Source of the DNA: Propionibacterium freudenreichii subsp. freudenreichii
GTDB lineage: Bacteria; Actinomycetota; Actinomycetes; Propionibacteriales; Propionibacteriaceae
Assembly (NCBI RefSeq): GCF_000940845.1
Contig: NZ_CP010341.1
Location: 30,001 to 62,000, forward strand
DNA length: 32,000 nucleotides
Direction: 5' to 3'
The notes below the pieces were generated by a model, which was not told the origin of the DNA, made no database searches, and worked only from the letters and a program-made list of their open reading frames with translations. Below, one piece after another: positions 167 through 6,662 of the stretch. A program made the position numbers and the translations under genes. Within the stretch, counting starts at the first letter, position 1, and the number at the start of each line of letters is the position of its first letter.

Positions 167-243
167 GGGCCTATAGCTCAGTTGGTTAGAGCGCGTCCCT
201 GATAAGGACGAGGTCACTGGTTCAAGTCCAGTTAGGCCCACCA
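167..243 (+). tRNA. tRNA-Ile (anticodon GAU), CCA encoded
   Basis: The cloverleaf was read by hand. Acceptor GGGCCTA/TAGGCCC, D-arm GCTC..GAGC, anticodon stem CGTCC/GGACG with loop CTGATAA (anticodon GAT), T-arm ACTGG-TTCAAGT-CCAGT, discriminator A, then CCA. Confidence 0.95.
219..242. repeat. attL core (ggttcaagtccagttaggcccacc), part of the functional tRNA-Ile T-arm and acceptor 3' strand
   Basis: Identical 24-mer at 6639-6662. The match extends to 27 bp with one mismatch (ac[t/g]gg...). Confidence 0.85.
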
Positions 244-289
244 AAGAATGTGCCTCTGACAAGCTTCGATGCTCTGAGCCCTCTCGACA

Positions 290-311
290 GGGTACGAATC
301 GGGTACGAATT
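290..311. repeat. Two tandem 11-bp repeats (gggtacgaatc gggtacgaatt): candidate integrase arm-type sites, left arm
   Basis: They lie 48 bp inside attL. The same motif in the same orientation occurs three times at 6479-6511, inside attR. Confidence 0.55.
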
Positions 312-422
312 CCCGTCGGTCCTCGCGTACGCGCGCGTGTGAGAGCGGGCCCGCCCACGCGCTCACCGGCGTGGCTCTCGCACGGCCTACACATAGCCCT
401 GACACCGCGAATCATGGGTGAC

Positions 423-449
423 AACTGATACCCCCCTGGGGTATCAGTT
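423..449. other. Perfect 12-bp stem / 3-nt loop hairpin (aactgatacccc-cct-ggggtatcagtt) in the non-coding terminal ~490 bp of the island
   Basis: The inverted repeat was read directly. No T-tract follows on either strand. It lies downstream of the last island gene. Function is unknown; terminator or a DNA recognition site are possibilities. Confidence 0.4.
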
Positions 450-621
450 CCGTGGGGAATGCCGCTATGTCTGGTCGGGTCGAGGGATACAGTCCAGACT
501 TTCCCCCCATGTTTTGTGGAAAGGGTGCCCATACAGGGCATGCAGGGTGATTGGGGTTGGGCGACCGGAAACCGCGTTCTCCCGGGTCCAGGATCACCGA
601 CCCTACGACTACACCACCCAT

Positions 622-668
622 GGGCTGCAAGTCCGGGAGATCTGCGACGGTGGGCCTCTAATCATGAC
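622..668. repeat. Copy 1 of a ~47-bp direct repeat; degenerate duplicate of the 3' end of the FDXHR gene
   Basis: gggctgc..gggagatctgcgacggtgggcctctaatcatgac matches 1468-1514. The core 34 bp matches at 31/34 positions, including 24 consecutive identities. In the corresponding minus-strand frame the Trp codon of copy 2 is TAG here. Confidence 0.7.
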
Positions 669-730
669 TGGAGCACAGCAGCGCCCCGGGTAGTTCGCGG
701 TGAACCACTCGGGGCGGTGATGTTGGTCGG

Positions 731-1411
731 TCAGACGGCCACGTCCGCAGACGTGAGCTGTTGCCTCTGACCGAACGGCTGGACATTTGTCACCGGCAGC
801 GCGTCGGCATCGTCCAGCTCGCGGAACAGATCGGGGTCGCCGTCGGCCAGGCCCAGGAGGTCCTGGGAATCCAGCTCCCCGCCCAACGCGATCTTGTGCG
901 CAGCCCGGGCCACACCTGCCTCCTGCTGTGCCGTCGCGAGTTGGCTGGCCAGGGCGCCGTAGAGTTCCTGGTTCTCGGGCAGCGCCGGGTACGCCCGGAC
1001 CACGGCCTCGGGGATGTACGCGGCCTCGTCCTCGGGCAGCTCGTGGGCGCCGATCGTGGCCAGGGTCTCCAGCTCGTGGGCGGAGGCGGACGGGGCGATT
1101 GTGTCGACGTTCGCCGTCCCGGCTGCGATACGTGCCGAAAGCCGCTGCCAGGTCAACTCTCGGGCGATGACGGTCTGGGGATCGGACGACGGCGCCAGGT
1201 CCTTGGCGAACTGATCGTTGAGAGCCTGCTGAGCCTTCTCTTCCCGGGCCAGCGCCACCTTCACCTCCGAGATGACCCATTCGCGGGTTGGCGCGATCTG
1301 CTTCTCTCGGTACTCGGCCAGGCCGCTCGCTGACAGGCTCGGGTTGGTGTAGGCATCGGCGGCCTTCTTGTCTGCCATGAACTTGCGGAATGCATCGGTG
1401 ATGCTAGACAT
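731..1411 (-). CDS. Hypothetical acidic, Ala-rich, probably helical protein (226 aa); last gene of the island
   Basis: ATG at 1411 is preceded by aaaggaag. Codon bias is typical of coding sequence. I recognise no motif (MSSITDAFRKFMADKKAADAY...). It is flanked by the 47-bp direct repeats. Confidence 0.6.
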   Translation of the reverse strand: MSSITDAFRKFMADKKAADAYTNPSLSASGLAEYREKQIAPTREWVISEVKVALAREEKAQQALNDQFAKDLAPSSDPQTVIARELTWQRLSARIAAGTANVDTIAPSASAHELETLATIGAHELPEDEAAYIPEAVVRAYPALPENQELYGALASQLATAQQEAGVARAAHKIALGGELDSQDLLGLADGDPDLFRELDDADALPVTNVQPFGQRQQLTSADVAV

Positions 1412-1455
1412 GATGGACTTCCTTTCGAGGAGCTATCTGATGGTTGGGGGTGTAG

Positions 1456-1740
1456 TTATGCGGGATCGGGCTGCGCGGCTGGGAGATCTGCGACGGTGGG
1501 CCTCCAATCGTCACTTCCGGGCCAGTGCCATACGCCCTTGGCATTCCGCACGAGGCCCTTGGCGGCTATCTCGTCGGGTGTGAGGCAGCGGCGCGGTATG
1601 TAGGGGCGCTGCGGGTCGTGGTGGTCGTAGTAGTCACCAACCCGGTGCAGGTCCCCCGCCGATGTGCCCGAGAACAGCTCGTTGCAGACGGGGCAGAGCT
1701 CTGTCTTGAAGCCAGGGATTGCGGGGCGCTTCGCGCTCAT
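1456..1740 (-). CDS. FDXHR-family-like zinc-binding protein (phage-associated small protein), 94 aa
   Basis: The internal ATG at 1740 is preceded by gggagggg. It carries CPVC ... GDLHRVG ... RRC and a GVWHWPG tail (MSAKRPAIPGFKTELCPVCNELF...). The longer 163-aa ORF extension runs through the iteron DNA and was rejected. Confidence 0.55.
   Translation of the reverse strand: MSAKRPAIPGFKTELCPVCNELFSGTSAGDLHRVGDYYDHHDPQRPYIPRRCLTPDEIAAKGLVRNAKGVWHWPGSDDWRPTVADLPAAQPDPA
1468..1514. repeat. Copy 2 of the ~47-bp direct repeat (the authentic 3' coding end of the FDXHR gene)
   Basis: See 622-668. On the minus strand this copy encodes ...GSDDWRPTVADLP. Confidence 0.7.
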
Positions 1741-1786
1741 GCTGGATTCCCCTCCCGAGCCAGGGGGGCATCCAATCGGAGGGCAG

Positions 1787-1930
1787 AACATACCGGCGTT
1801 TTCTTGGCCCCCGGTATGTTCCGCCGGATCTACCGATGAAGAACCTACCTCGAACCCCCCTAAAGGGGTACGTTCGGTAGGTTTCTTCGAACCTACCGAG
1901 CCGGTATGTTCCGGTATGTTCCGGTACCTT
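1787..1930. repeat. Iteron / palindrome cluster, candidate replication origin of the island
   Basis: The 10-mer ccggtatgtt is direct at 1811-1820, 1901-1910 and 1911-1920, degenerate at 1921-1930 (ccggtacctt), and inverted at 1787-1796. A second motif, gaacctacc, occurs at 1841-1849 and 1889-1897. The arms cggtaggtt (1875-1883) and aacctaccg (1890-1898) form a 9-bp palindrome. The block begins 14 bp after the helicase stop codon (1944-1946). Confidence 0.6.
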
Positions 1931-1943
1931 CTGGAAGGGCACC

Positions 1944-3524
1944 TCATTTCGCTCCTCCTGGCTCGGTATTTTCGGCCAGCTTGTAGTAGAACCCGCCACC
2001 CTGTTTGTGGCGAGGCACGGTTCCGACTACCCCGTTCTTGACCAGCTGATCGCGCGCCTTGGTGAGGGACGAATCCTTGATCCCTGTCGCGTCTCCCAGC
2101 TCCTTCCCCGATAGACCCTCCGGGCGAACGGGGCGAGGATCGGCCTGATAGTCGGACAGCGCCTTCAGGACGGCTTGGGTGGCCTTCTGCTGGTCTCGGG
2201 AGGCCTTGGCGGTCTTCCGGCTACCGACGCCGGACAGACGAACGTGCTGGGTTCTTGGGTCGAAGTCCATCTGGTCCTCGGGCACGTCCACGTCTCGCCC
2301 GTAGGCGGAGAAGTAGCGCGGCGCAGCATCCTCGGTGTTGCCCTGCTGGTCGTGCTCTTTTGTGAGCTTCCACGTGGCATCTGGCCAGTCGAGAATGCGG
2401 CTGTCACCCCGGCTGCGCTCCCCGCTGTGGCCCATGTGGTGCACCACGAGCAAGTTGGGAATGCCCGCCTCAGCTACGAGAGAGTCGAGGGCGTCGAGAA
2501 TCCGCCCTGCATCGTGGTCCTCGTCTAGCCCCAGAGCATCCATGAGTGGCCGGAGGCAGTCGAGGATGAGCACTTGGTGGCCGCGCAGCAGGTCGGCCCA
2601 CTGGTGGCGGACATCCTCGTCAAGGATGTCGAAGGAGGAAACACGGCCCCGCAGAGGGACGATAGACACCCGGTCCTGGTTGACTATCCCCTGCTGGGTC
2701 AGCCACCGGCGGAGCATGTTCCGGCTGAGTTCGTCGTCGATGATGGCGGTCCTCCACTGGCCAGGCATCGGGGCGAACCTGTTCAGCAGAGGCACCCCGT
2801 CCACGATGGCGCGGGTCACGTTGCCGACCAGAGTCGTCTTGCCTGCCTTGAACTGGGCTGCCAGGACAATGTGCCCGTCCATCGGCCACACCTGCTCTAC
2901 AAAGTAGACGGGCGCATCATCCGGTTCCGAGGCCAGGGCGTCGAGGGTAACGATGGGCGGGATTGTGGACTCCCGGCCTTCGGCCTTGAGTTCACGGGCT
3001 GCGATCTGGCGGGCCTGCTGGCGCAGCTTCTCCCGATCGATCAGCTCGCGCAGCTCATCCTTTCCCCCCGCCTCCCGCCCTGGCTCGGGCTTCCCGCTCA
3101 TGTACGGGCCGAAGTCTTCGTCCGCGCTGGGATTCTGGGGATGAAGAGGATCGTCGCCTGCCTTCTCGAGCGCGTCGCTCCACTTGTGCGCCACCCTGTC
3201 AGGACCGAACCCGTCGTCCGTCGGGCAGCGATTCTTGAAGTCCTTCTCGGCCTGCTCGATCGTGTAGTCCGTGCCAGAGTTAGCAGCGCGGACGAGCTGG
3301 CAGGCGACAGCGAAGCATCCCGAGTCCCACCCGTCGCCGCGCTCGGTGCGATCCCCAGGTGCCAGGGCTTCGAGCTTGTCGAGGTCGCCCAGCACGCCCG
3401 CCACGGTCCGGCGGACGTAGTCGGCAGAGACAGGATCCTCCTGGCCAGGAGCGGTAGCTGGAGCCGGAACGGTCTCCGCGTCCTTCTCGGCCGTCTCGGC
3501 CAGTATCTCGTCAGGGCTCAGCAT
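1944..3524 (-). CDS. RepA/DnaB-like AAA (RecA-fold, AAA_25-type) replicative ATPase with C-terminal winged-helix-like domain, 526 aa
   Basis: Walker A is AAQFKAGKTT and Walker B is QVLILDCL, followed by LLVVHHMGHSG. The start ATG at 3524 overlaps the upstream stop (ATGCTGA). The 604-aa ORF extension overlaps the upstream gene and was rejected. Confidence 0.75.
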   Translation of the reverse strand: MLSPDEILAETAEKDAETVPAPATAPGQEDPVSADYVRRTVAGVLGDLDKLEALAPGDRTERGDGWDSGCFAVACQLVRAANSGTDYTIEQAEKDFKNRCPTDDGFGPDRVAHKWSDALEKAGDDPLHPQNPSADEDFGPYMSGKPEPGREAGGKDELRELIDREKLRQQARQIAARELKAEGRESTIPPIVTLDALASEPDDAPVYFVEQVWPMDGHIVLAAQFKAGKTTLVGNVTRAIVDGVPLLNRFAPMPGQWRTAIIDDELSRNMLRRWLTQQGIVNQDRVSIVPLRGRVSSFDILDEDVRHQWADLLRGHQVLILDCLRPLMDALGLDEDHDAGRILDALDSLVAEAGIPNLLVVHHMGHSGERSRGDSRILDWPDATWKLTKEHDQQGNTEDAAPRYFSAYGRDVDVPEDQMDFDPRTQHVRLSGVGSRKTAKASRDQQKATQAVLKALSDYQADPRPVRPEGLSGKELGDATGIKDSSLTKARDQLVKNGVVGTVPRHKQGGGFYYKLAENTEPGGAK

Positions 3525-4039
3525 GCGTCTGCCCCCTCGTAAATCTCGTAATCGTTCCAGCGCCGATTGTTCGAGGGCAGGAACGAGAACTGGATGGGGT
3601 CGGCGCACGTCTGGTCGAACTGCTCGGTGCCGAGTTGTCGGATGAGCTTGCCAGCGATGATCGTGTACTCGTCGGGCATCACCGGGCGCGATAGCGGGAT
3701 GATGATGCGGTAGCGGGGGGCCTTGGGCCTGCTTCTCCAGGTGCTGTGCACAAGGCACCGCACTCCGAGCGCCAGAACTTTGTCGGGAAGATCGGGCCAG
3801 GCCGCGTCGGCATCCAGCAGGACCGCTGAGCGGGACAGGATGGTCGTCTTCCGGCGGTACACCTCACCGGTCAGCGGGTCGCGCATGAGTGTGCCAAACA
3901 GCCAGCACCCGCATTCCTTGTGGTTTGCGGGATGCCGAACCACCTCGATAATCTCGTCCCAGGTCATGGAGCCGTTGGTCCAGACCTTGGAGTCCTTGCG
4001 TGGGGCACGCGCGACGGCATACGTGGTTGGCTCAGTCAT
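3518..4039 (-). CDS. Putative primase-polymerase-like (AEP-type) replication protein, 173 aa
   Basis: It has a DxD-like motif (AVLLDADA), an H-S/T motif (CLVHSTWRS) and RYRIIIPLSRP. It is translationally coupled to the helicase gene. The family assignment rests on motifs only. Confidence 0.5.
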   Translation of the reverse strand: MTEPTTYAVARAPRKDSKVWTNGSMTWDEIIEVVRHPANHKECGCWLFGTLMRDPLTGEVYRRKTTILSRSAVLLDADAAWPDLPDKVLALGVRCLVHSTWRSRPKAPRYRIIIPLSRPVMPDEYTIIAGKLIRQLGTEQFDQTCADPIQFSFLPSNNRRWNDYEIYEGADAC

Positions 4040-4464
4040 CGGGAGTCACCACCGTAGGGCCGCTGGCGTGTCTGCTGCTCAAATTCCAGCGAGACGAAGT
4101 TGGCATGGTCGTCGCCACCGTCGTAGAGGAACTGGCGGGACCGCCAGCCCGGTCGTAGCTCGGTGATCCGGACACGAGTTGGAAGGGCGACGCCCATCGT
4201 CTCTGCCTCTGCGCGTTCACCCCACGTCGTGTCGCGCTCATAGCTATCCTGGCCAGGATGAAGGATGAACCACGCTTCATCGCGGGCCTGGGCGCGGTCG
4301 GCCTTGAGGCCTGCCGGGCACGTCGGCTCGTGAACCATTCCTCCAGCTGGAGAGAACGTCGCTCCGCAATCGGGGCAGGCGGTAGCCTTGAAGGCACGTT
4401 GCTTAGCTGATCTACCTTGAGCCGCCCAGTCGCCCGCTGGGCGGTTTCTCTTTGATCGAGACAT
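4036..4464 (-). CDS. Hypothetical protein with a putative Zn-ribbon (CPDC...H..C), 142 aa
   Basis: Contains ACPDCGATFSPAGGMVHEPTCPAG. Its stop overlaps the next start (ATGA at 4036-4039). Its start lies 3 nt after the Xis stop. Confidence 0.55.
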   Translation of the reverse strand: MSRSKRNRPAGDWAAQGRSAKQRAFKATACPDCGATFSPAGGMVHEPTCPAGLKADRAQARDEAWFILHPGQDSYERDTTWGERAEAETMGVALPTRVRITELRPGWRSRQFLYDGGDDHANFVSLEFEQQTRQRPYGGDSR

Positions 4465-4467
4465 TGC

Positions 4468-4689
4468 TTAGGCCACCCTCTCTACGAGTGAGAGGACATC
4501 GGCCGTCTTGACGCGCAGAGTGCGGGTCCGGCCGATGCGGTAGCACGGCAGCTGACCGTCGGCGGTCAGGCGCTTGAGGGTGCGCACGGAGCAGCCGAGG
4601 AGCTCTGCTGCCTGGGGATAGCCCACGAACTTTCCGTGCTGCTGGAGCGCGGCGGAGCGGTCCTGCGGGGTGAAGGCTGAGGTGGTCAT
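4468..4689 (-). CDS. xis: Excisionase / AlpA-like helix-turn-helix DNA-binding protein, 73 aa
   Basis: AAELLGCSVRTLKRLTADGQLPCYRIGRTRTLRVKTADVLSLV is the typical excisionase-family (MerR-like) HTH plus wing. There is an ATGA overlap with the upstream gene. Confidence 0.7.
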   Translation of the reverse strand: MTTSAFTPQDRSAALQQHGKFVGYPQAAELLGCSVRTLKRLTADGQLPCYRIGRTRTLRVKTADVLSLVERVA

Positions 4690-4970
4690 CGTTCCACCGC
4701 CGCATCGAGCAGCATGGACGCGAGGAAGTCGGTCTGCTCCGGCGTGAAGGCTGGCCCCTTGGCGAGCGCGTCGGCAATGTGGCGAGCCAGCACAACCGTG
4801 TTGATTTCGCCCTTTGCCTTGGCCACGGCGGCAGGGTCGGGCGTTGGGTTGCCCACGTAGAGCCGAGCCAGGCGGGCCTTGGCATCCGCGATGGCGGGGT
4901 CTCTACGGTGATCGAGATTGGGGTCAATGAGCTGTCGGTAGGGCCTCTTCGGATGGGTAGATTTGGACAT
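4686..4970 (-). CDS. Hypothetical protein, 94 aa; first gene after the only internal intergenic gap
   Basis: ATG at 4970 is preceded by ggag. The protein begins MSKSTHPKRPYRQLIDPNLDHRRDP... and I recognise no motif. The longer 130-aa ORF start lacks an RBS. Confidence 0.5.
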   Translation of the reverse strand: MSKSTHPKRPYRQLIDPNLDHRRDPAIADAKARLARLYVGNPTPDPAAVAKAKGEINTVVLARHIADALAKGPAFTPEQTDFLASMLLDAAVER

Positions 4971-5224
4971 GCGGAACTCCGGGAGATCGTTCTCGCGGCT
5001 TCCGCTGGCGCCTCTGCGACGAGACGGCGGACTGTGTTGCCGATACCCAATCCCGGCCCACCCGGGATGCCCTAGCATGATCTGTCCGCCACGGGGAATC
5101 GCACCCGTGGTAAGGCTCCGTGTATGTTGCCTAGGAATGACGCGGCTACCTGGCTGGACTACAGAAGTTGAGCCACTTCCTCCGGCGACTCAGACTACCC
5201 AACTTGAGGCAAGTATACGCCGAT

Positions 5225-6421
5225 TCAACTAGTTCCGCTGCTCTGCACCTTCGACAGCTCCGACACCCGATCTGCGAGCTCAGCAATGCGGCTGTGGGCG
5301 GCATGCTGATACCGCATGGCGATCTCGGGATCGGCGTGACCCATGAGTGTCATGAGTTCCTTGGTGGTGGCACCGGCCACGGCGTAGTTGGTGGCGGCGA
5401 AGTGGCGGAGCTTGTGGAAGCTCAGGTCATCTCGTCCCAGCATGTGCCTGGCTCGGTAATAGCCACCGCCCTGCTTCTTGACGTTCCCGTCCTTGTCGTA
5501 CGTGGGCCGGTGACCGTACAGCTGCCCCGGTGTGAGGTAGTCCGTGCCGGGCGTGGTCGGTGGGAACAGGAGGCCGTCCTTGCCCCACTGCGCGTAGCGC
5601 TTCAGGTGTTCGCGTAGGTCTGGCCAGATGTTGCGAGGGATGGGCACGCGGCGCTCTCCGCTGTCGCTCTTCGGTGTCGTGACCTGCTGGTGCCCGTCCA
5701 CCGTCACAATGCCCCGAGCCACGGAGATGTAGCCCCCGGTGTCGTTGAGCTCGATGTCGGATCGGCGGAGCGCTGCAAGCTCACCGAACCGCAACCCGCA
5801 CCATGCGGCGATCAGGACCGCTGCACGATGCTGAGGAGGCATGAGATCGGCTAGCTGGCCAACTTGTTCGACGGTGAACAGCTCGACCTCGGGATGACGA
5901 CGGCCCCCGCTGGCGCCCCGCACGTGCACAGGGTTGGTGGCGATGATGCCGTCCTCCACAGCGCTGGCCAGGATGGAGCGGAAGAGCGCATAGGCATGAG
6001 ACCGGGCAACCGGCGCGCCCGGGTCCATGGACTCGTACCATGCCAGCGTTTGAGCCCGGTCTATGGCGGTGATCGGCACGTCGAGGAACCGAGCCAGGGC
6101 ATGAGCACGCATGGCCCGGTAGTCCGCTGCGGTGCGGGCCTTGAGCGGTCGCCCACGAACCTGCCGGTGCTCGATCCAGCGTGCGGAGTAGACACCGAAC
6201 GTGATCTGGTCGGCTTCCTCAACCGCGCGGCGTTGCGCGGGAGGAGTCCACTCGTCACGGTCGATGAGAAGTTGCTCGCCGATGAGCCACTGGTCCGCGA
6301 GCTCGAAGCTGGCGAAAGTGTGCCCCGGCGTGTGCAGCACTCCCAGACGCCAGTAGCGGGCCTTGAATCCTCGGTCCTTGGCCATGATGGTGCCCAGCGT
6401 GGACTTCCGACGGCGCTTCAT
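5225..6421 (-). CDS. int: Tyrosine recombinase / phage-type integrase, 398 aa
   Basis: The C-terminal catalytic region reads WCGLRFGELAALRRSDI ... HKLRHFAATNYAVAGATTKELMTLMGHADPEIAMRYQH (R...HxxR...Y). The N-terminal region is arm-binding-like. The gene is adjacent to attR. Confidence 0.9.
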   Translation of the reverse strand: MKRRRKSTLGTIMAKDRGFKARYWRLGVLHTPGHTFASFELADQWLIGEQLLIDRDEWTPPAQRRAVEEADQITFGVYSARWIEHRQVRGRPLKARTAADYRAMRAHALARFLDVPITAIDRAQTLAWYESMDPGAPVARSHAYALFRSILASAVEDGIIATNPVHVRGASGGRRHPEVELFTVEQVGQLADLMPPQHRAAVLIAAWCGLRFGELAALRRSDIELNDTGGYISVARGIVTVDGHQQVTTPKSDSGERRVPIPRNIWPDLREHLKRYAQWGKDGLLFPPTTPGTDYLTPGQLYGHRPTYDKDGNVKKQGGGYYRARHMLGRDDLSFHKLRHFAATNYAVAGATTKELMTLMGHADPEIAMRYQHAAHSRIAELADRVSELSKVQSSGTS

Positions 6422-6478
6422 CGCTGGGCCGTCCTATGGAAGTTGTGGCTCAGTTCGCTCATTTCGGTTCCTCAAACA

Positions 6479-6511
6479 GGGTACGATCCGGGTACGATCC
6501 GGGTACGATTT
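6479..6511. repeat. Three tandem 11-bp repeats (gggtacgatcc x2, gggtacgattt): candidate integrase arm-type sites, right arm
   Basis: They lie between the int start (6421) and attR (6639). The motif and orientation match 290-311. Confidence 0.55.
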
Positions 6512-6638
6512 GAGGCTAGTTTAGCCCGTTGAGCCCGCTTAGCGCTACAACGAGAGTGGTTTCTGTGGTCTCCATATTCCCTAGCCAGGAGGCATATCTC
6601 CTCGTCGGGGTGGGATCAGCGATTTCCAGAGGCTAACG

Positions 6639-6662
6639 GGTTCAAGTCCAGTTAGGCCCACC
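6639..6662. repeat. attR core; displaced ancestral 3' fragment of tRNA-Ile
   Basis: Identical to 219-242. Downstream it reads ...cccaccG rather than ...cccaccA, so the ancestral gene apparently did not encode the full CCA. Confidence 0.85.

Follow-up and report, generated by a model that had tools for sequence, protein, structure and literature searches.

The PICMIs of Vibrionaceae (phage-inducible, minimalist chromosomal islands) are elements of about 6 kb that combine 6-8 co-directional genes with long non-coding stretches and ATGA start/stop overlaps (PMC10803314), and the same features are found in an island of about 6.4 kb located at a tRNA-Ile gene in Propionibacterium freudenreichii, a cheese bacterium, within the 32,000-nucleotide stretch analysed here (the window). 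The likeness extends to the gene order of PICMI115, in which int is followed by a small gene, an AlpA-type HTH gene (PF12728, a family included in the PICMI search model; PMC10803314), a single gene, a primase and accessory genes, and capsid-remodelling and terminase genes are absent from both. However, the island belongs to a different phylum, its replicase is made of a primase-like domain and an AAA_25 helicase instead of DUF3987/DUF5906, and it integrates in tRNA-Ile and not in fis. PICMIs are also characterized by a helper phage, induction and concatemer packaging, which are at most predicted for the island. Gene order closely parallels that of the Vibrio PICMIs, but the island lies outside the PICMI family.

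PICIs, including SaPIs, share with the island a terminal int gene, an AlpA/Xis-type regulator, pri-rep, an origin directly 3' of rep and a specific att site, as well as the absence of structural and lysis genes. The island is nevertheless about half the usual size (PICI median 9.5 kb), terS, ppi, cpm and other hijacking genes were undetected in it, and it has no divergent stl/str-type repressor pair. In the SatelliteFinder scheme it would score only three core components, corresponding to Type C, which may be functional satellites according to the authors of that scheme (PMC10085698). AICEs such as pSAM2 resemble the island in combining a tRNA-integrating int/xis module with autonomous replication in a high-GC actinobacterium, but profile searches of the island did not find the FtsK/SpoIIIE-TraB translocase, spd, Nudix/pif or kor, and the genes that flank its Rep relatives are phage and not transfer genes. 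Prim-Pol-type replicases also occur in AICEs.

Close comparators are found among the capsid-bearing islands of other Actinobacteria, namely those of Kocuria oceani (L014) and K. gwangalliensis (L024), bounded by att repeats and 8462 and 7929 bp long, and a serine-recombinase subgroup (L012/L013/L030). These small islands code for a homologous AAA_25 Rep (40-50% identity), a tyrosine integrase and an HTH_17 Xis, have iterons directly after rep and arm-type repeats at both ends, and are inserted at a tRNA or at the 3' end of a gene; the serine-recombinase subgroup additionally has orf94 and the primase-like domain in common with our island, next to scaffold-like and capsid genes. They differ in their size of about 8-10 kb and in the presence of an HK97-type capsid gene, to which scaffold-like and small-terminase genes may be added, whereas the P. 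freudenreichii island has an FDXHR-like gene and orf226 at the capsid position and no morphogenesis gene. The Mycobacterium "small prophage-like elements" phiRv1/phiRv2, classed as putative PICI, may presumably be of the same kind as the capsid-bearing islands. Satellites of this type had been considered poorly documented in Actinobacteria by an earlier sequence-only reading of this DNA; this holds for the minimal capsid-less type, which is not known to have been described there, but in Mycobacterium PICI-like elements, phiRv1/phiRv2 among them, have been predicted, and MiniFlayer/MulchRoom and EPIPs have been obtained as isolates.

The island is inserted at a tRNA-Ile(GAT) gene (167..243, plus strand; ARAGORN; Rfam RF00005, 76 bits), the 3' end of which forms the attL core. 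A direct repeat of 27 nt with 96% identity (216-242 and 6636-6662) encloses a perfect 24-bp core, present as attL at 219..242 and attR at 6639..6662 with a spacing of 6420 bp between the copies. Between them lie eight genes, every one on the minus strand: int, at the tRNA-distal end, orf94, an Xis/AlpA-type HTH_17 gene, the zinc-finger orf142, a primase-like gene, the AAA_25 rep, the FDXHR-like gene and the acidic orf226. Start and stop codons overlap at three junctions (orf94/xis, orf142/prim and prim/rep), and GC content is 64.4%, compared with 68.9% in the rest of the window. Repeat, ORF and profile analyses thereby confirmed the layout of perfect att repeats and co-directional genes proposed in the sequence-only reading.

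Comparison with other strains showed a clean empty attB in nine complete P. freudenreichii genomes, each with a single core and an exact join of the sequences left of attL and right of attR, while the site was occupied in one. The 24-bp repeat is the true att core and not a chance repeat, and the island, missing from most strains, inserts precisely at the 3' end of tRNA-Ile through this core. The closed circle with attP also exists: the JGI metagenome contig Ga0172377_10021239 (6473 bp) is a circularly permuted copy whose ends abut within 1 base and which carries element-left, core and element-right, the predicted attP junction (243 joined to 6638). Spontaneous excision or a tandem array could alternatively be the source of this metagenome contig. 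Logan contributed two contigs (6446 bp and 6450 bp) that terminate exactly one 31-mer past the 30-mers common to attB and attL/attR, as expected if empty and occupied sites coexist in one sample. A further copy, 94-99% identical, has another core base and another right flank, which implies a second host background.

The machinery for this mobility is encoded by int (5225..6421), a 398-aa tyrosine integrase (PF00589, E 2e-16), and xis (4468..4689), a 73-aa Xis/AlpA-type HTH_17 excisionase or regulator (PF12728, E 6e-10; TIGR01764 excisionase, E 2e-9). Between them, orf94 (4686..4970), found by ORF and homologue search, codes for a small conserved protein with no family match, for which 16 other loci have a homologue upstream of rep. 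Repeat searches also detected arm-type direct repeats, putative integrase arm-binding sites, as two copies of GGGTACGAAT at 287..310, with related copies near attR, where GGGTACGATCC is present three times (6476..6508). The integrase and Xis/AlpA protein, possibly with orf94, would excise the island via these arm-type GGGTACGA repeats.

Rep (1944..3524) is a 526-aa AAA_25 (RepA/DnaB-like) ATPase (E 1e-18) with a C-terminal winged-helix-like region, and many of its 1628 homologues carry a Prim-Pol fusion. The adjacent gene (3518..4039) codes for a 173-aa protein with a primase-like N-terminal domain (phrog_9765 'DNA primase'/256, E 1e-22) and no Pfam match; it shares 37% identity with the N-terminus of the L013 Rep and 30% with a D5_N protein of L096. 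In relatives, this domain and the helicase form one fused protein. Its previous description as an AEP-like primase agrees with the PHROG matches, the fused homologues and the motifs, but no AEP profile matched. Adjoining the 3' end of rep, repeat analysis revealed an iteron block and putative origin (~1782..1925) with four copies of CCGGTATGTTCC, one of them inverted, and three to four of GAACCTACC. Two island alleles are distinguished by an exchange of the Rep ATPase/C-terminus together with the downstream iterons, CCGGTATGTTCC and GAACCTACC being replaced by ACCGCGCCC exactly where the protein is swapped, and this joint swap identifies them as a cognate Rep-ori pair. Such allelic specificity resembles the rep-ori diversity of SaPIs. 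The primase-like protein and Rep would fire this origin and amplify the circle. Taken with the empty sites, the circular attP contig and the arm-type repeats at both ends, the co-variation of Rep C-terminus and iterons strongly supports the previous proposal of a self-replicating, excisable island, and we consider its identity as a mobile integrative replicon very likely.

In other Actinobacteria some relatives of Rep are encoded by prophages that also have TerL, portal, capsid and tape measure genes, others by the capsid-bearing islands described above, which supports a phage-satellite lineage, as do 87 Rep relatives in IMG/VR viral contigs. This is guilt by association, as complete prophages use the same Rep family too. 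Since the island holds integration and replication genes only, its mobility is demonstrated and its larger relatives have capsid genes, it is probably a stripped-down phage parasite, and we favour, tentatively, the interpretation of an active element, minimal, integrative and replicative, that belongs to the phage-satellite lineage and depends on a helper phage. The most likely next step after amplification would be entry of island DNA, probably as concatemers, into helper-phage capsids, six copies (38.5 kb) being close to the size of P. freudenreichii phage genomes (35-38.6 kb). Packaging would then resemble that of the minimalist PICMI satellites, likewise without an encoded capsid or terminase function, and the FDXHR-like gene, orf226 and orf142 may serve as helper-interaction or cargo genes.

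Profiles for capsid, terminase, portal, tail, lysis, relaxase and FtsK/TraB (Pfam, NCBIfam, PHROGs) matched none of the eight genes, in agreement with the sequence-only reading, and profile and structure searches detected no packaging, capsid-remodelling or interference homology in any of them. The 12-nt cos overhangs published for seven P. freudenreichii phages amount to three sequences (PMC5831693); none of them occurs in the island, and allowing up to 2 mismatches gave no more matches than expected by chance. Phages B22, PFR1 and Anatole, cos junctions included, showed no similarity to it at the nucleotide or translated level, the island was not found in IMG/VR, no prophage lies within the window, and searches yielded no helper phage or packaging signal. 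Given the missing cos and the lack of similarity to the compared phages, helper dependence is something we infer, and only tentatively. The proposal of a phage satellite is therefore supported only indirectly, by the relatives of Rep, orf94 and the primase domain in prophages and capsid islands and by phage homologues of the FDXHR-like protein, while no packaging gene, published cos, similarity to these phages or known helper speaks for it.

These negative results agree with a somewhat unlikely alternative, a phage-independent, plasmid-like integrative replicon spread by transformation or by conjugative mobilisation, through T4SS ICEs or plasmids and an unrecognised oriT in the tail. It would account for a full int/xis/rep/ori set and a circular form without packaging function; T4SS-type ICEs and putative conjugative plasmids are present in P. 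freudenreichii and could act as non-phage helpers, and a perfect inverted repeat of 12 bp (AACTGATACCCC / GGGGTATCAGTT, 423..449), which could be oriT-like, lies within the 488-bp non-coding tail. Its arms are conserved in the circular contig L009, and we regard it as a candidate protein-binding, packaging or transfer site. Yet relaxase, coupling protein and FtsK/TraB were undetected in the island genes, no PLSDB plasmid matches the island or its tail, and the genes recurring beside Rep relatives are those of phage morphogenesis, with no conjugation family among the 25 families listed of 147 matched (107 neighbour proteins scanned; all families with two members are within the 25). The FDXHR, orf94 and primase-domain relatives are likewise phage- or satellite-associated.

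The accessory genes bear on two other explanations. The FDXHR-like gene (1456..1740; RBS GGGAGG) codes for a 94-aa zinc-binding protein, matched by phrog_7707 (E 5e-16) and, at 23.7 bits, below the 27-bit cut-off, by PF24071, and is about 48% identical to Cutibacterium acnes phage gene products. The fast-evolving orf142 (4036..4464), with a weak zinc-finger signal only, was earlier called a Zn-ribbon and is better described as an N-terminal C2HC finger (C-x2-C-x12-H-x3-C). Orf226 (731..1411) is acidic (pI 4.5), all-helical in its structure model and of a rare family with no match in profile searches; its confident model (pLDDT 86.8) matched no known fold, and the structure search ruled out a capsid, terminase, portal, relaxase or TraB fold.

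Relatives with scaffold, capsid or TerS genes in place of the FDXHR-like gene and orf226 would fit a former capsid-bearing satellite or small prophage, reduced to a remnant by the loss of its capsid and small-terminase module, which still excises and replicates but transfers poorly and is inherited mainly vertically with occasional loss. The many non-synonymous differences between variants (0 synonymous / 11 non-synonymous in orf142, 5 / 9 in orf226) point the same way, as does a degenerate copy, located in the tail, of the 3' end of the FDXHR-like gene (622..669, minus strand), 85% identical to 1468-1515 and with an in-frame stop. We consider such decay unlikely, since the att cores are perfect, int is under strong purifying selection (16 / 2) and the eight-gene layout is retained in all copies and both Rep alleles. 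The modular rep-ori exchange and the existence of a second host background imply that the island moved horizontally in the recent past and that co-resident elements recombined, and the orf226 family, also located downstream of an unrelated primase-helicase on another contig of about 6.7 kb, has the appearance of a functional module rather than of debris.

The same non-synonymous excess in orf142 and orf226 would fit a conflict interface if the island were mainly a defence or cargo element, with the FDXHR-like protein, orf226 and orf142 as an anti-phage system and mobility incidental. Satellites and small islands often bear defence genes, and downstream of one orf226 homologue lie Hypoth_Ymh and DUF4238 genes, which we take to be defence-associated. 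Such a role is very improbable, as no PADLOC model gave a meaningful score for any island protein, and it would reinterpret the accessory genes only, without competing with the mobility mechanism. Directly downstream of the orf226 stop, a 22-nt inverted repeat (675..723, minus strand) probably acts as the operon terminator.

Our results show that the DNA between the tRNA-Ile(GAT) gene (167-243), its insertion target, and the distal att site is very probably a genuine, active and minimal integrative replicon. Perfect 24-bp att cores at 219-242 and 6639-6662, spaced 6420 bp apart and lying inside a 27-nt direct repeat with one mismatch, bound eight genes that are all on the minus strand: int (5225-6421), coding for a PF00589 integrase, orf94 (4686-4970), the xis gene for an HTH_17/excisionase-family protein (4468-4689), orf142 (4036-4464), the gene for a 173-aa primase-like protein (3518-4039), rep (1944-3524), coding for a 526-aa ATPase with an AAA_25 domain (PF13481), the gene for a 94-aa FDXHR-like protein (1456-1740), and orf226 (731-1411), whose product is acidic. 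ATGA-type overlaps join orf94 to xis, orf142 to the primase-like gene and the latter to rep, and non-coding DNA makes up only about 1 kb of the island. An iteron block with four copies of CCGGTATGTTCC and three to four of GAACCTACC lies between rep and the FDXHR gene (1782-1925), and GGGTACGA(A/T)(T/C)C repeats placed just within both att sites look like integrase arm sites. The sequence-only reading had described the att repeats, gene set and overlaps accurately, small refinements aside. The island has a GC content of 64.4% against 68.9% in the remainder of the window, which consists of housekeeping genes, and it is flanked by the conserved gyrB-gyrA...DUF3566-tRNA-Ile / YbjN region. The window belongs to Propionibacterium freudenreichii, and public records have each island protein under this species name.

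Occupancy of the site was surveyed by lookup of the flanking YbjN protein, which led to ten distinct genomic places. Nine complete genomes have DUF3566-tRNA-Ile followed directly by YbjN, with one exact 24-bp core and a sequence equal to the left side of attL joined to the right side of attR, and the occupied site among the ten was that of LT576034.1. The empty tRNA-Ile sites for which a search had been proposed thus exist. Index entries for the exact YbjN protein cover 501 blocks of the collection and those for the exact Rep 52, so that the island is a minority, accessory element. The complementary product, attP, for which the sequence-only reading had proposed a test, is present in a 6473-bp contig of JGI metagenome 3300014206 (Ga0172377_10021239), in which the gene order is circularly permuted (...rep, FDXHR, orf226, int, orf94, xis), the left and right ends of the element are joined through the core, and alignment to the window and to an integrated copy carrying the same allele shows that the contig ends meet to within a single base. 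The simpler reading of this contig is an excised circle, the less simple one a tandem array, and since either one needs site-specific recombination activity, the proposal that the island is excisable holds. With attB and attP both observed around the 24-bp core and the integrase gene at one end, the island has the integration module expected of a phage-inducible chromosomal island (PICI).

Further copies were found in Logan contigs of 6446 bp and 6450 bp (the latter in four samples, SRR34820935), which stop one 31-mer past the 30-mers shared by attB and attL/attR; we infer a k=31 graph break caused by empty and occupied sites coexisting in a sample. The 6446-bp contig is not itself a circle, as its ends are chromosomal and tRNA bases without overlap. 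This copy (SRR25399992) and the circular copy share a one-base core variant (CCAGTAAGG versus CCAGTTAGG). The 6446-bp contig has the variant at both att sites together with a different 8-bp right flank (CAGATTAC), which indicates a resident host with a different tRNA-Ile 3' end; its island DNA is 94-99% identical to that of the window, and recent transfer between host backgrounds is suggested by flank evidence of only 8 bp. A 7740-bp contig considered as a second host context proved to be P. freudenreichii again.

The replication module exists as two alleles, and their comparison bears directly on the earlier view that the island replicates itself. The first 147 Rep residues are about 97% identical between them, while the ATPase and C-terminal regions beyond cannot be aligned, the proteins differ in length (526 aa versus 499 aa) and no DNA similarity is left past residue 147. 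The iterons switch exactly in step with Rep, CCGGTATGTTCC and GAACCTACC being replaced by at least 10 copies of ACCGCGCCC(CGA). The exchanged segments are 1944-3083 and 1782-1925 in the window and 1202-2600 in the circular contig, whose allele is also that of the 6450-bp contig and of locus L102; the rest of the island, together with Rep residues 1-147, is 94-99% identical. Joint replacement of the Rep specificity region and the repeats next to it is expected of a cognate Rep-origin pair, and self-replication is supported by this paired exchange. As in the PICI scheme, a primase-replicase, made up here of the primase-like protein and the AAA_25 Rep, is followed by its cognate origin 3' of rep, as judged from the co-swapped iterons.

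The 173-aa protein can reasonably be regarded as AEP-like, although it has no Pfam match. It matches PHROG 'DNA primase' families (E 1e-22), it aligns with the N-terminus of a fused 675-aa Rep (locus L013) at 37% identity (E 7e-27) and with that of a D5_N/DUF5906 primase-helicase (locus L096) at 30% (E 2e-15), and it retains the motif series LDADxxxP / H-S-T / R-Y-R-I-I-I-P-L. A word-index search with it returned its own cluster only, and a PDB sequence search returned only spurious kinase matches. Some NCBI records label 3518-4039 as 'protein kinase family protein', a label whose sole support is a spurious MAP3K similarity (E 0.02). The PHROG matches and the fused homologues point to a primase-like domain instead.

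Peptide-pattern searches in genome and viral collections returned no close relatives of the island, and its relatives came from alignment-based search. Homologues of Rep number more than 1600, many of which are Prim-Pol fusions, and an alignment-based scan limited to one genome per species gave 80 Rep-related loci, nearly all in Actinobacteria, whose predicted proteins were clustered and the recurrent clusters annotated. Three contexts emerged: prophages with TerL, portal, capsid and tape measure genes; small islands combining rep, HTH_17 and Phage_capsid genes with a recombinase of the tyrosine or serine type, in some cases with a scaffold-like or small-terminase gene as well, and lacking portal, TerL and tail genes as far as the flanks reach; and minimal int-rep islands. 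In IMG/VR, from which the island itself is missing, 87 Rep relatives lie mostly on viral contigs of 14-68 kb. In 16 other loci a homologue of orf94 stands just before rep, serine-recombinase islands with scaffold-like and capsid genes (L012, L013, L030) have the primase-like domain fused to their Rep, and the FDXHR-like protein is about 48% identical to the product of a Cutibacterium acnes phage gene. Scanned together against Pfam, 107 non-redundant neighbour proteins matched 147 families, and no conjugation family is among the 25 listed, which include all those with two members. These phage and satellite contexts of Rep, orf94, the primase-like domain and FDXHR argue that the replication and regulation module is derived from phages or satellites rather than from plasmids or AICEs, and the ancestry of the island appears to lie among phage satellites and prophages of Actinobacteria.

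Two Kocuria islands of the capsid-bearing kind have defined ends. That of K. oceani (locus L014, 7910-16392) measures 8462 bp (8.46 kb) between perfect 21-bp att repeats at the yajQ 3' end, and that of K. gwangalliensis (locus L024, 6830-14785) measures 7929 bp (7.93 kb) between 27-nt att repeats at a tRNA-Lys gene. Both have arm-type repeats at the two ends, AGTGTCCCAGTGTCCC iterons directly after rep, and genes for an integrase, HTH regulators, a Prim-Pol/AAA_25 Rep, WhiB and an HK97-type capsid, with a Terminase_6 small terminase in L014, and neither has portal, TerL or tail genes. They are likely to be uncharacterised capsid-encoding satellites. The P. freudenreichii island follows the same ground plan but lacks the capsid module: no HK97-type capsid gene stands downstream of its rep. 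Some proteins encoded downstream of Rep in other loci (L011, 5521-6471; L058, 3691-4161; L057, 14948-15913) share a C...C...VC.HGG.APQA motif and match phrog_3678 (unknown function) and, weakly, a small-terminase PHROG; they may be a zinc-finger small-terminase family of Rep-family elements. The serine-recombinase islands L012, L013, L020, L030, L031, L042, L050, L055 and L057, which have this Rep family, repeatedly adjoin or sit within Tad-pilus genes (T2SSE/T2SSF). The T2SSE ATPase gene may be split in L012 and L013, where it is called beside the island as short pieces (185 and 121 aa).

None of the eight island proteins matched capsid, scaffold, portal, terminase, tail, lysis, relaxase, coupling-protein or FtsK/TraB families in Pfam, NCBIfam or PHROGs, in agreement with the sequence-only reading, which had seen no virion, lysis or transfer genes. 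A decayed prophage would be expected to retain structural, terminase or lysis remnants, and these profiles found none. Against 50,697 phage records the island gave weak similarity only, within rep, to M. abscessus prophages. A plasmid relationship was rejected, as neither the whole island nor its tail matched PLSDB (72,556 plasmids, pJS25 not among them), and so was a defence system, no PADLOC model being matched by any island protein at a meaningful score. The island differs from AICEs in that no FtsK/SpoIIIE-like TraB translocase was found among its proteins. PICIs have AlpA (Gram-negative type) or a divergent Stl/Str pair (Gram-positive type); the island encodes the HTH_17/excisionase-type protein, a possible regulator, co-directionally after int and orf94, and has no divergent repressor ORF, as had been noticed before. 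No PICI packaging or interference module (terS, ppi, cpm, rpp or similar) was found by Pfam, NCBIfam or PHROG search. In the SatelliteFinder scheme the island has three core PICI components (int, alpA-like and pri-rep), a class that may include functional satellites according to the authors (PMC10085698).

The closest likeness in layout is with PICMI115 of Vibrio, an experimentally characterised satellite of about 6 kb with the order int, iolg, alpA, up1, prim, up2, ATGA overlaps, large non-coding regions and no capsid-remodelling genes, which is packaged as eight-copy concatemers (PMC10803314). Gene order in the island is equal to it position for position, and the int and AlpA (PF05930/PF12728) core, the size of roughly 6 kb and the lack of capsid-remodelling genes are likewise shared. 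However, PICMIs have a DUF3987 (PF13148) or DUF5906 (PF19263) primase and integrate into or beside fis in Vibrionaceae, whereas the island has the AAA_25 Rep with a primase-like protein devoid of a Pfam match and resides in tRNA-Ile of P. freudenreichii. Because both primase family and target differ, it is not a PICMI member, though it would work like one. Satellites in Actinobacteria lack experimental validation according to the literature, and the earlier statement that they are poorly documented there stands in that respect, although examples of other kinds have been isolated (MiniFlayer/MulchRoom and the EPIPs).

Among the accessory genes, orf226 had no match in Pfam, PHROG and NCBIfam profiles or in phage tblastn, and a word-index search returned its own cluster only. 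Exhaustive HMMER search of 1.84 billion representatives gave eight distant homologues of 208-262 aa (E 1e-8 to 1.5e-4), and an AlphaFold2 model built from their alignment is confident and all-helical (pLDDT 86.8, pTM 0.73). Structure prediction, which had been recommended for this protein, agreed with the lack of virion-type homology: Foldseek searches of PDB and BFVD gave no match at E <= 0.001 and, together with the profile and tblastn negatives, rule out a diverged capsid, scaffold or terminase. The 80 Rep-related loci hold no family member except for one match at E 0.003. One homologue lies on a 6721-bp contig (L096), where it follows an AAA_30 helicase gene and that of a D5_N/DUF5906 primase-helicase with an N-terminus akin to the island primase-like protein, and another (L097) is directly upstream of Hypoth_Ymh and DUF4238 genes. 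From these two placed contexts, orf226 is a recurring accessory gene of small replicative elements. In orf142, a C-x2-C-x12-H-x3-C finger sits in 42 N-terminal residues missing from NCBI's 100-aa call. Between island variants all 11 differences in orf142 are non-synonymous and none is synonymous; int has 16 synonymous and 2 non-synonymous differences. The GC3 of orf142 is only 0.66, and the gene is called at 142, 120 or 100 aa depending on the copy. Either diversifying selection or a doubtful gene model would account for this.

The proposal that the island is a phage satellite is supported as to lineage, by the relatives of Rep, orf94, the primase-like domain and FDXHR in phages and satellites, but no cos or sequence link to the P. 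freudenreichii phages compared was found. Seven P. freudenreichii phages have published 12-nt cos overhangs, of three different sequences (PMC5831693); none of these occurs in the island, matches with two mismatches allowed being at or below chance, and blastn-short and tblastx against B22, PFR1 and Anatole, including the joined cos regions, gave noise only. Mimicry of the cos of known helpers is thus ruled out for the phages compared (seven by overhangs; B22, PFR1 and Anatole directly). Six island copies amount to 38.5 kb and P. freudenreichii phage genomes to 35.2-38.6 kb, which is compatible with concatemer packaging as a matter of arithmetic only. Dependence on a helper phage is the best single explanation of island transfer, and we give it a little less than an even chance. 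A non-phage helper is conceivable too, as T4SS-type ICEs and putative conjugative plasmids occur in P. freudenreichii (PMC5644110). An IME would bring a relaxase, an oriT or both; no relaxase was detected among the eight proteins, and the tail of the island has no PLSDB plasmid match. Conjugative or other non-phage spread is a less likely rival, and a transfer-defective remnant is slightly less likely still. On the helper-phage explanation, we tentatively put forward a fuller scheme, possible but less likely than not, in which Actinobacteria would have in this island their first 'minimalist' phage satellite, functionally analogous to the Vibrio PICMIs. Loss of the capsid and small-terminase module from a widespread, as yet uncharacterised family of ~8-kb capsid-encoding actinobacterial satellites would have given rise to it, and dairy P. 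freudenreichii phages would carry it in their heads as concatemers of roughly six copies, with FDXHR, orf226 (a fold without known relative) and the fast-evolving zinc-finger protein orf142 as new factors in helper recognition or interference.

If the island is a satellite, the capsid-less 'minimalist' type of marine Vibrio extends to an industrially important high-GC Gram-positive bacterium. Cultures used for Swiss-cheese ripening face phage attack as a practical problem, and satellites could protect them or else spread genes. Our survey also indicates a large family of small int-xis-rep-capsid islands in Kocuria, Arthrobacter, Mycobacterium, Nocardioides and other genera, for which no experimental study was found in the literature. 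The compact rep-iteron module, with two natural specificity alleles and tRNA-Ile integration, is a candidate toolkit for integrative or replicative Propionibacterium vectors. Even if it is no satellite, the island offers a clean natural case of the minimum that an excising, self-replicating island needs to persist.

The non-coding tail of the island showed several further features. Within its 488 bp lies a perfect 12-bp inverted repeat (423-449; AACTGATACCCC ... GGGGTATCAGTT, 3-nt spacer), whose arms are kept in the circular contig with a changed loop, and which is a candidate binding, packaging or oriT-like site. Downstream of orf226, positions 622-669 hold a 48-nt copy of the 3' end of the FDXHR gene (1468-1515), 85% identical and with TGG changed to TAG, which looks like the footprint of orf226 inserted as a ~846-bp cassette. 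Another 48 nt (333-380) match within primase/helicase genes of Microbacterium phage Zeta1847 (85%, E 3e-4) and of Curtobacterium phages; the idea of a decayed second rep gene in the tail (243-730) that arose from this match was unsupported, a six-frame HMM search giving no Rep remnant. At the tRNA-Ile gene, the encoded 3' end reads ...CCCACCG at empty sites (locus L101 and others) and ...CCCACCA after insertion (240-243 in the window), so that the encoded CCA end is supplied by the island.
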